Of a stretch of DNA of 64,000 nt, positions 54,001 through 57,000 are shown in pieces. The stretch covers positions 6,227 through 70,226 of the IMG/VR virus record IMGVR_UViG_3300037323_000212; one strand, given 5' to 3'. The DNA is from a virus. Position numbers: made by a program. Every line of letters starts with the position of its first letter. Within the stretch, counting starts at the first letter, position 1.

Positions 54001-57000
54001 AGTTGAGCGACGACAGCTGGGCGGGGCCGCCCGAGAACTTCAGGTACTCCAGCCAGTTCTTGATGTCTGCGGTATCAAGCTCTTCGTTTTGTCCGGAGAA
54101 CAAGCCCAGCAGCATGGTGAGCGCGTACTTCACTTGCTTGTTCACCTCGAAGCGCGACTTGTCGCGCGTGTTCTCCACGTAGTGCATCACCACGGGTGAG
54201 TTGCGCACGTTGGCAATGCCCTCGTAGCTCTTTAAGGTCTTGATGGTGTTCTCAATCTCGATGCGGGTGTCCGTAGAACCCACCACCACGACCACCACGT
54301 TTTCTCCCCGGGCTTTGAGCTCGGACACCAGCACTGGGCCGATCACGGAACCACTCGTTATGTTCGAATAAGTGCGTTAGGCTTATCCCGCGCCATTACG
54401 CGCAGCTGCAACTTTCACTGCAGACCAGACTATATCTTCATCTTGACAGGCCGCCACTGCTGCGCTGTTAAGACACTCTCCATTTCGAGGCACTTGCCCC
54501 TACACCGTGGTAAACGGTTAGTCGTTGAACCTTCTCCGTGCCTGCTTGAGGGTTAGGAGCTTGGATGCTGATTGCCCAATCTTTGTACTTTTCAAACCAC
54601 TCCATCGGACAATGGAGTCTCTTCGAGAAGAGTCGCTTTGCCTTTCGGCTCGCAGTGGTAACAAAGCTCTAAGGGGATTCCAGCAGTTAAAAGAGATTCA
54701 CTGCAGTGTCACCACTGCAGCGGGCTATCCCATCGTCCCTGAGGGACGATGGGGTTAACCACCCGAGGCGGTGTGCACCACGACGTTGAACATGGTGGGC
54801 TTGAACTTTTGCAAAATGCCCAGCACGTTCTTGGAGATGGCCTCGTAGTTGGCCGAGCGCACTTTGCCCGAGCCATCGATGTCGTTGAACAGGTAGATCG
54901 CCTCTTCGGGCAACTTCTTGTTGTGCAAGTTGGAGCGACTCGTGTCGATGTAGCACGGCACCATTGAGGCGAATCCCACGTCGCTTTGGTTGCGCAGGCT
55001 CTCCATGTCGGCTACGATGTTGACCCCGCCGCCCCCGGCGGCGTACACGTTAACTTGGGCGCGGGTGATGTTGGATGCGGTCATGTGATAAAAATCTCAA
55101 ACAGTTGAATAACAAGAAAAACAAGTTCAGCCAAGTCAAAGGGTTAGGCTAAACAAGGGCGAGGTCAGGTCGACCTCAAACTCTGGCCGGTAGGCCTCGG
55201 TATACGATATCAGGAGCTCGTACTTCAGCTCCTGGGGTGATAGACTGGTGTGGTTCAGGCGTTTTCTGAACCAGTACTTCTTGGTAAAGACCCAATCGAT
55301 CCCGACGTTTATCAGCACGTACTCGCCCAGTGCTGGCAAGCTCTTGTAAGCCTCCACGCGGGTAGTGCGCAGCTGAGCGTCTGTGTGCATCACCAGCACC
55401 GTGTCTGGGCGCTCAAGCAAGCAAAGGCTGCCCGCAGGGAGCCTTTGCTCCAAAGTGGCCAAGAAGGCGCGCACCGAATCGGTCAGTCCGACTTCTTGAG
55501 GTGTCGCTTGATTATGGTGTTCAAACAAGCACCCTTGTTTGAAGACGGGTGCGTGCGTTTGCAGTCGAGTCACGGATTGGGTCCTTTAGATGGATTTGCT
55601 GAGGATTGTCAAATCATTGCCAGCCTGATAGACAGTGGTCGTCTGGCCTATAACGCCGTTGCTGATCTCCACGCAGGGCACACTCAACTGGGTACCGGGC
55701 AGTTTGGCGACATTTACCTTGATGTTCAGGTAAGTGTTTAGGTGACCTTCGACCGAGCCGATCTCGACGGTTAAGCATCCTTTGGTTTCGCACTCATCGG
55801 TCACGTCGATTTGAAAGGCTTTTGCAATGTCACTGGCAATAGCGTCTTGGACAGACCCGCCCGACTTGTAGCAAGGCGAGTCAACATCGAGGATGACTTG
55901 ACTGAACGAGAAGTCCTCGTTTTCATCGATGAGATCATCCAGCGGTGTTTCTTTGGAAGTCATTTCTTTTTTCCTTTTGCTTAAACTTTTAAAAATGGCC
56001 AACTGTCCACGTGTGAATCTCTTGACCAAGGGCGCCTGCGTTTACTGTCACTCGATTGGTTTGCGCGCCTTGCTTCATGTTGACTTCAAGTATCAACATC
56101 TTATCTTCACCACCACCGTTGGGGGTAATGCAAATGCGCACCCGCTCCTTGGAGAGGGATTCATCGATTACATCGATTTTGAAAGCCTGCTCAACCCGCT
56201 CCTTGGTTGCATCTGGCAAAGGGTGACACGAGTAATCCCCAAAGATGTTCTCGGTAAATGAGAAGTCCCCGTTCTTGTCGATCAGCTCGTCCAATGGTGT
56301 TGCTTTGGAGGTCATCTTGAGTCCTTCAATTTTCTTCATTCAAAATCGCAAATCCGTCTCCGGCCCGATGGATGGTGAGTCTCTGACCACTTAGCTCATT
56401 TGTGATCACCACGCGCGGCGCACTCAAACCCCCACCCGGGGGTTGAGCAGCACTTATCTCAACGGAAATAGAGTCATCAAGGTGGCCTTCAGTGGAGCCA
56501 ACCTCGACGATCACACATCCCTTGGTTGAGCACGCATCAATCACGTTGATCTCAAAGATCTGCTCGGAGATGCCTTCAGTGTCACCCCCAGCGTTGCCCG
56601 CGTTTAACGAGTAAAAAGGTGAGTTGGTATCAAAGATCGTTTGTGTAAACGAGAAGTCCTCGTTTTCATCGATGAGATCATCCAACGGTGTCTCTTGGGA
56701 CATGGTGATTTTCCTCTTGGTGAGCGGGTTTACTTCAGTACTCCGCTGCGATGATGTCGTCTTCGGATATGCCAAAGACCTCAGCGGCTTTGGCATAGAT
56801 GTCGTACAGAGATAGGTGCACGGCACTGACATCATCTCCTCGGCGAACAAAAGCCGTTGCCGAGCCACTGATGTACCTCAGTTTCTCAGCACCCGCTTGC
56901 ATGACCACCAGCACTTGGCCCTCTTTGACCAGCGGCATCACGTGCTTTCTGAAATCAAACTCCACCGGTTCAAGCACATTGTCCTCATCGTCGGTGCACT

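Follow-up and report, generated by a model that had tools for sequence, protein, structure and literature searches.

The td, nrdB and nrdD (sunY) introns of phage T4 are group I introns of subgroup IA that carry, or once carried, endonuclease open reading frames (ORFs) and that interrupt genes of nucleotide metabolism, and Staphylococcus phage Twort reportedly has an intron-dense genome. Here we describe an ORF-less group I intron of IA-type architecture that interrupts phuZ, the gene for the phage tubulin PhuZ, in an uncultured virus that we assign to the nucleus-forming chimalliviruses. The locus lies in a window of 64,000 nucleotides (nt), bases 6227-70226 of the 70,226-base IMG/VR virus record IMGVR_UViG_3300037323_000212 (CheckV completeness 26%), and all coordinates below refer to this window. 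In nucleus-forming phages, a group I intron in an RNA polymerase (RNAP) gene of PhiPA3 encodes the HNH endonuclease gp210 (Birkholz et al. 2024, PMC11620839), and predicted group I introns have been described in phiKZ (PMC10914365). The Jug gut jumbo phages contain 18.5 group I introns per genome on average; the targets named are terL, nrdD and DNA polymerase, and the word 'tubulin' does not occur in the main text of that study (PMC12880540).

The nearest cultured-phage introns are those of PhiPA3, phiKZ and 201phi2-1, which are 71-72% identical to the phuZ intron over 37-54% of its length, including the 3' core. The PhiPA3 match lies at an annotated endonuclease gene, that of 201phi2-1 at an RNAP beta subunit gene, and that of phiKZ under no annotated feature. 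The phuZ intron resembles these introns in residing in the same phage family and at highly conserved codons of a conserved gene; it differs from them in that it interrupts a tubulin gene and not a polymerase gene, contains no endonuclease ORF and bears an additional 87-nt extension of P5. With the T4 introns it shares the IA-type core with P7.1/P7.2, the insertion at a conserved codon, the early in-frame stop and the existence of intron-plus and intron-minus alleles. Unlike them, it is devoid of an endonuclease ORF, lies outside nucleotide-metabolism genes and is presumably transcribed inside a protein-walled nucleus, away from ribosomes. As in Twort and the Jug phages, ORF-less or small group I introns are numerous here: the window holds eight in 64 kb, three of them in one gene, and relatives hold three to six per 45-216 kb. 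We therefore deal with an ordinary group I intron at an ordinary kind of site, in a phage family in which introns are known; what is new is the host gene and the site. In line with a guess made earlier from the sequence, no intron in phuZ or in any other phage tubulin gene was found in full-text searches of the literature; the group I intron database (Selles Vidal 2025) may include one.

A group I intron interrupts phuZ within the GGSGS loop

The split gene is encoded on the minus strand. Exon 1 (54758..55084, 327 nt) comprises 109 codons, from the ATG at 55084 to the last base, U-1, at 54758, and its product ends in ...FNVVVHTASGG. The frame then closes immediately at a TAA stop (54757-54755), giving a 109-amino acid (aa) ORF at 55084..54755. 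The intron (54356..54757(-), 402 nt) begins with this in-frame UAA, its first base thus being T/U, and ends in G (54356); its boundaries follow from the reading frame, the homologs and the intron-less alleles. It contains no ORF, the longest stop-to-stop frame on either strand being 78 codons. Exon 2 (53666..54355(-), 690 nt) starts with SGSVIGP, and its frame, SGSVIGPVLVSELKARG..., extends over 229 codons from 54355 to the stop at 53666. When the exons are joined by script they form 338 codons plus a stop with zero internal stops, and the predicted junction, ASGG|SGSV, makes the GGSGS nucleotide-binding loop whole. The GC content of the intron is 51.5%, versus 59% for each exon.

This confirms the layout that a sequence-only reading of the same DNA had put forward. 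The succession HTASGG|TAA, 402-nt intron and |SGSVIGP proved exact in length and coordinates when compared with the sequence, the ORFs and the joined exons. The P, Q, R and S elements that it named are present and can be placed within the intron, under a full-length match to the Rfam group I intron model RF00028. The GGSGS loop that it expected to be restored is so in the joined exons, in frame and matching the intron-less relative P0001, and the 109-aa fragment that it predicted as the product of unspliced RNA follows from UAA being the first three bases of the intron.

The two exons encode one PhuZ

Profile and structure comparisons assign both halves to a single protein. PHROG 4733 ('tubulin PhuZ') matches exon 1 over profile positions 3-101 (E 1.1e-25) and exon 2 over positions 102-322 of 323 (E 1.3e-51), so that the two matches are contiguous. 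The Pfam family TubZ_C_2 matches exon 2 with 29.9 bits, against a cut-off of 27 bits. Chain 9pm9_C of the PDB aligns with exon 1 over residues 1-106 and with exon 2 over residues 107-272; exon 2 also matches phiKZ TubZ (3zbp_A, residues 108-325, E 6.8e-25) and the PhuZ of 201phi2-1 (3r4v, E 4e-16). At the DNA level, the tblastn matches of the two exons directly abut in phage RTH11 (290388/290389), FLC4-4C (7708/7707) and SURPRISE13 (7791/7790). The closest database protein, the intron-less P0001, is 338 aa long, equal to 109 plus 229, is 94% identical over exon 2 and runs straight over the junction (...HTASGGSGSVIGP...).

The break sits in the most conserved motif of PhuZ. Across 113 aligned PhuZ proteins, G108 and G111 never vary, and at least 90% of the sequences retain G109, S110 and S112; we take this GGSGS motif to be the T4 signature loop of tubulin/FtsZ nomenclature, which binds the phosphates of the nucleotide. 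When exon 2 of the window is compared with contigs from the DNA runs X3 and X4, 23 of the 29 listed differences fall on third codon positions, and therefore the exons appear to be evolving as a working gene.

The insert has the features of a complete IA-type ribozyme

RF00028 aligns with the insert at 54741..54406(-) over its whole length (model positions 1-253 of 253) and scores 72.7 bits (E 1.6e-16) where the gathering score is 50 bits, a match far beyond chance. The aligned core (54406..54741(-)) comprises P2, P3, P4-P6, P7, P7.1/P7.2, P8 and P9. The P4 strands map to 54688-54680 and 54574-54566, and P7 is formed by the R element GUUCAACGACUA (54530-54519) together with the S element AAGAUAUAGUCU (54438-54427), all on the minus strand. 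RNAfold places the internal guide sequence UAGCC (intron nt 31-35; 54723..54727(-)) with G33 at 54725, and a P1 extension in the form of a perfect 11-bp hairpin (54729..54753(-)).

Between P7 and P3', the RF00028 alignment contains an insert of 34 nt after GACUA that holds two hairpins, P7.1 and P7.2 (54487..54518(-); 54518-54504 and 54500-54487), the second of which covaries. Such a pair of hairpins in this position is a hallmark of subgroup IA, and by this criterion the architecture of the intron is IA-type. The covariation extends beyond P7.2: RNAalifold on the eight group I introns of the window returns 47 pairs, 33 of which keep pairing through changes on both sides, and by eye a U-A pair of P7 is seen to change to C-G in the intron at 40001-40295. 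The same eight introns have in common a P2 capped by a GNRA-type loop (GUGA in the phuZ intron), P3, P4-P6, P7, P7.1/P7.2, P8 and a P9 with a GAAA loop. Taken together, these features support the view that the insert is a complete group I ribozyme lying exactly between the two halves of phuZ.

One element is unique to the phuZ intron. According to the eight-intron alignment and the minimum free energy fold, P5 bears a peripheral extension of 87 nt with three small hairpins (54581..54667(-)), which is missing from the other seven introns. A single low-depth contig of run X4 joins 54594 to 54663, with 15 other letters in place of the 68 nt between; it may represent an intron variant without the P5 extension, or a paralog without it from another gene, the shorter of its two matching sides being only 23 letters long.

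Splice sites and P1 pairing

The ends of the intron are canonical, with U as the last exon base (54758) and G (omega-G, 54356) as the last intron base. When the end of the exon is folded with intron nt 1-37 in RNAfold, a P1 forms in which exon bases G-3, G-2 and U-1 and intron bases U1 and A2 pair with U31, A32, G33, C34 and C35, placing the U-1.G33 wobble at the cut; with 6 nt of exon context this register forms at -26.2 kcal/mol. G33 is invariant in 8/8 window introns. The exon ends in GGU GGU and thereby permits a second register, overlooked in the sequence-only reading, in which C-8 to U-4 pair with G33 to G37 and the wobble falls at U-4.

In the intron-less alleles L086 and L091 the sequence GGTGGT|AGTGGTTC is uninterrupted, and what separates these alleles from the window is precisely the 402-nt insert. 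Relative to intron-less DNA there is consequently no ambiguity in the boundaries of the insertion, and only a cut after U-1 would restore the ancestral sequence. For this reason, and since G108 and G109 are conserved and P0001 keeps both glycines, the U-1 site is favoured over the U-4 site.

Related phuZ loci with and without the intron

The sequence-only reading had proposed searching chimallivirus phuZ loci for genes split at the same codon. This search was run, and every related locus for which DNA was available proved to be uninterrupted. None of 85 IMG/VR loci (80 distinct contigs and five repeats) retrieved with the full-length profile is split, in a ranking that disfavours split genes; nor is any of the best 80 of at least 129 IMG/VR candidates ranked on exon 1 alone, a set that overlaps with the first. 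All four loci on JGI metagenome contigs and the one locus on GTDB genome contigs are likewise uninterrupted. Among cultured-phage records, an even sample of 60 rows from 208 contained no intron-split phuZ, and 59 of these rows are single pieces over the site. The exception, Pseudomonas phage Flora_bin_1, was rejected as an intron case: its phuZ is N-terminally truncated and keeps the GGASGS loop intact, and no exon lies in the 2.5 kb upstream. In that record (L171, PQ533667.1) the phuZ-like coding sequence at 2501-3184 starts just before GGASGS, with stops and opposite-strand genes upstream, and it is either a truncated phuZ or an assembly join.

Other samples also contain the intron at this site. 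Its 3' junction is spanned by contigs of runs X3 (54286-54444) and X4 (54325-54481), and its 5' junction by an X4 contig (54696-54847). No contig of runs X2-X5 skips 54757-54356, as the intron-less form would, which says little given that contigs drop rare variants.

Protein databases offer a second, indirect view of the site. Eleven diverse ORFs in the databases terminate shortly after the GG at which exon 1 ends. Of these, P0122 ends in ...HTASGG and P0123 in ...GGGGY; nine more were found among the best 150 of 571 representatives, of which P0214 ends at GG, P0249 continues with GGS and 11 further residues, and P0129, P0131, P0183, P0199, P0218, P0250 and P0241 continue with GGK and 2-9 further residues. 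This pile-up is not what random truncation gives, since other short ORFs end at scattered lengths: of the 17 short representatives retrieved, six read through GGSGS and end at anywhere from 141 to 211 aa, and two leave the family sequence before the loop. When 10 of the 11 GG-ending ORFs (all except P0249) were looked up, six were found to lie on contigs of 2.3-27 kb. P0106 begins with MKIT followed by SGSVAGP, as expected of an ORF that starts in exon 2. The 107-aa P0199, which ends in GGKLA, shares a 90%-identity cluster with a full-length PhuZ of 326 aa (P0268), and this pairing suggests interrupted and uninterrupted alleles in another lineage.

The same site may thus be interrupted in other uncultured phages, perhaps repeatedly, with an intron as the presumed occupant. 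A broader proposal would be that group I introns of at least two lineages have repeatedly landed at the GG|SGS codons in many diverged nucleus-forming phages, and that the endonuclease-free intron of the window is still moving between phuZ alleles. A second lineage is suggested by the seven database ORFs that continue with GGK, as opposed to the UAA with which the intron starts here. We regard this proposal as tentative and more doubtful than not.

Divergence of the intron and of its exons

Intron-plus and intron-minus alleles occur among close relatives, as the comparison with the intron-less P0001 illustrates. In run X4 the pieces covering the intron differ from the window at 3/190 and 4/157 positions, and those covering the exons at 43/237, 42/307 and 19/151; in run X5 the intron differs at 5/237 positions and the exons at 23/160 and 26/245. 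The intron of the X4 and X5 contigs is hence ~98% identical to that of the window, versus 82-89% for the flanking exons. In the X4 exon bins at 53860-54119 the sole contig is the diverged one, at a depth of 13.7 compared with 13.2-14.8 for the intron pieces. Structural constraint alone would not account for an identity of 98%, because the paralogous introns of the window are only 51-58% identical to the phuZ intron. The pattern suggests that the intron is younger than the alleles in which it resides and has moved laterally.

We propose that the intron belongs to a family that populates the polymerase genes of this phage clade and that a recent lateral transfer between alleles brought it into phuZ, probably by recombination during mixed infections and possibly with the aid of a nuclease acting in trans. 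Because the intron itself encodes no endonuclease, its route of spread, be it plain recombination or a nuclease supplied in trans, is one that we infer. A free-standing ORF of 467 aa at 12560-13963(-), 40 kb from the phuZ intron, matches NUMOD1 with 23.5 bits (cut-off 22.8) and HNH_3 below threshold, and could be a homing endonuclease that acts in trans on ORF-less introns. A recent origin of the phuZ intron by copying of another intron of the window was rejected in view of the low identity of the paralogs.

Predicted splicing pathway and alternative readings

We consider it highly probable that phuZ carries, between the Gly109 and Ser110 codons of the GGSGS loop, an ORF-less group I intron of IA type that arrived recently by lateral transfer and whose predicted splicing yields a 338-codon phuZ mRNA. 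In this scheme phuZ and its intron would be transcribed as a single pre-mRNA. The ribozyme would fold, P1 arising from pairing of the exon GGU (-3 to -1) with intron bases C35, C34 and G33, and the U-1.G33 wobble would define the 5' splice site. Free guanosine bound in P7 would attack after U-1 (54758); the terminal G of the intron (54356) would then take the same pocket, and the 5' exon would attack after it, so that the exons are ligated into the 338-codon mRNA. If splicing failed, translation would halt at the UAA and produce a 109-aa fragment lacking most of the GTPase. It is a sound inference from this arrangement that formation of the PhuZ filament, and with it of the spindle, depends on splicing.

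Several points weigh against this reading. Splicing is a prediction made from the sequence alone. As regards mobility, the X3 intron piece is about as diverged as the exons, with 26 differences and 15 gaps in 339 nt, and the contrast between intron and exons is hence not universal; furthermore, the contigs of one run may mix strains, and intron and exons are linked in X4 and X5 by similar depth only. The intron encodes no homing endonuclease, and the Pfam HNH and GIY-YIG families have no match in the 70-kb record. As regards the splice sites, P10 is weak (~2 pairs by inspection), and the second P1 register makes five exon pairs versus three in the U-1 register and is, with longer exon context, marginally more stable in isolation (-27.3 versus -25.9 to -26.2 kcal/mol).

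The last of these points leads to the possibility that splicing takes place at the other GGU, as the main event or as a by-product. A cut after U-4 (54761) would produce an mRNA of 337 codons, still in frame, whose loop reads SGSGS, one Gly short. Besides its larger number of exon-guide pairs, this register is the one that RNAfold prefers with 8-12 exon bases (-27.3 or -27.4 kcal/mol versus -25.9 for an enforced U-1.G33). We nevertheless judge it unlikely, given that the PhuZ alignment has no variation at G108 and at least 90% conservation at G109, that the 94%-identical intron-less allele P0001 retains GG, that the eleven other truncated ORFs end after GG and not after a single G, and that the intron-less DNA alleles, which differ by exactly 402 nt, are recovered by the U-1 site alone. 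Another alternative holds that the intron is dead for splicing and phuZ a dead gene, a loss that would be tolerated since some chimalliviruses can do without PhuZ. P1 does have only a short exon part, splicing is predicted from sequence, and, going by its title, Prichard et al. 2025 reportedly deal with a nucleus-forming phage without PhuZ. Yet neither exon is damaged, the 338 codons being free of stops and frameshifts, and the third-position bias of exon 2 (23/29 differences from relatives) is not that of a dead gene; the ribozyme core scores well above the Rfam cut-off with all conserved elements present, and the intron has been kept at ~98% identity in phages whose exons differ by 11-18%. 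This makes a dead gene very improbable.

We give still less credence to a truly split gene, in which the two halves would be translated separately from unspliced RNA and the two polypeptides would assemble. A GTG four codons into exon 2 does open an ORF of 226 aa (53666..54346), and N-truncated PhuZ-like ORFs exist in the database (P0013, P0038 and P0039); the latter, however, are equally well explained as the output of gene callers on intron-containing genes, and no ribosome-binding site is seen before the exon 2 GTG in the window sequence. Moreover, the two halves are divided within the invariant GGSGS loop by a complete ribozyme, not by an intergenic spacer. An intein was rejected as well, given the immediate TAA in the frame and the RNA fold of the insert.

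Host phage and its other introns

The phage is assigned to the chimalliviruses because it combines chimallin, PhuZ and split multisubunit RNAP genes. A chimallin homolog lies at 42440-44230(-) (record positions 48666-50456), ~10 kb from phuZ, and in tblastn shares 46.7% identity over 600 aa with a relative's chimallin (E 2e-170), which in turn matches the nuclear shell protein of PhiPA3 (E 1.1e-29). With PhiPA3 chimallin itself as query there was no match in the record, and the protein of the closer relative was needed to find the homolog. The RNAP genes are represented by the RNAP beta PHROGs 3015, 3295 and 2987.

RF00028 has eight matches in the 64-kb window, and the seven besides the phuZ intron lie in DNA polymerase and RNAP genes. 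They share with the phuZ intron the GNRA-type P2 loop, P7.1/P7.2, the R and S elements and the invariant guide G; the phuZ intron stands apart from them in its low identity and in that phuZ is not a classic polymerase target. Two are found in the DNA polymerase gene (phrog_3011), at 9213-9519(+) (67.0 bits) and 9659-10008(+) (84.6 bits). The polymerase frames at 7802-9226 and 10054-10296 match profile positions 12-462 and 495-567, and a mini-exon of ~140 nt must therefore lie between the two predicted introns. Single introns interrupt the RNAP beta genes phrog_3015 (23448-23808(-)) and phrog_3295 (26760-27146(-)), where the flanking frames are contiguous on the profile (527|528 and 403|404, respectively). 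The gap in phrog_3015, ~630 nt long, includes in addition a frame of 80 codons (23756-23995) that matches nothing in PHROG or Pfam. Three further introns lie within 1.1 kb at RNAP beta phrog_2987 (40001-40295, 40373-40716 and 40800-41101, all on the minus strand), with only ~77 and ~83 nt between them, so that the gene should contain two very small internal exons.

This genome is not alone in its high intron load, which characterizes the clade. Group I introns number five on a 216-kb contig of a relative, four in 105 kb, three in 45 kb, six in 67 kb and none in 39 kb, with phuZ uninterrupted in all; the second to fourth of these counts are from the IMG/VR records G002, G004 and G005, which hold the loci L086, L088 and L010, respectively. 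The longest contig (L170, G001:C9; 216,249 bases), filed under a Rhodoferax metagenome-assembled genome, resembles a near-complete chimallivirus genome: it encodes an uninterrupted PhuZ that is 70% identical to P0001, a chimallin at 27106-28512 and the five introns. Its binning under Rhodoferax is only a weak hint of the host.

Discussion

If the intron splices as predicted, assembly of the PhuZ spindle in this phage would depend on an RNA-processing step and, judging by full-text searches of the literature, this would be the first reported group I intron in a phage cytoskeletal gene. There is also a practical consequence: gene callers split such a phuZ into a 109-aa stub and an N-truncated ORF, and surveys that record whether metagenomic chimalliviruses have PhuZ, or how long it is, would therefore miscount it. 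The combination of a near-identical intron with diverged exons provides a natural system in which to study how endonuclease-free introns move, as well as one in which to ask whether a phage nucleus that excludes ribosomes favours the accumulation of introns. Should the GG|SGS codons prove to be a recurrent landing site, ORF-less ribozymes would spread efficiently in chimalliviruses. This may be because the phage nucleus keeps transcription and ribozyme folding apart from ribosomes, a separation that could likewise account for the density of introns in this clade, one every 8-40 kb.

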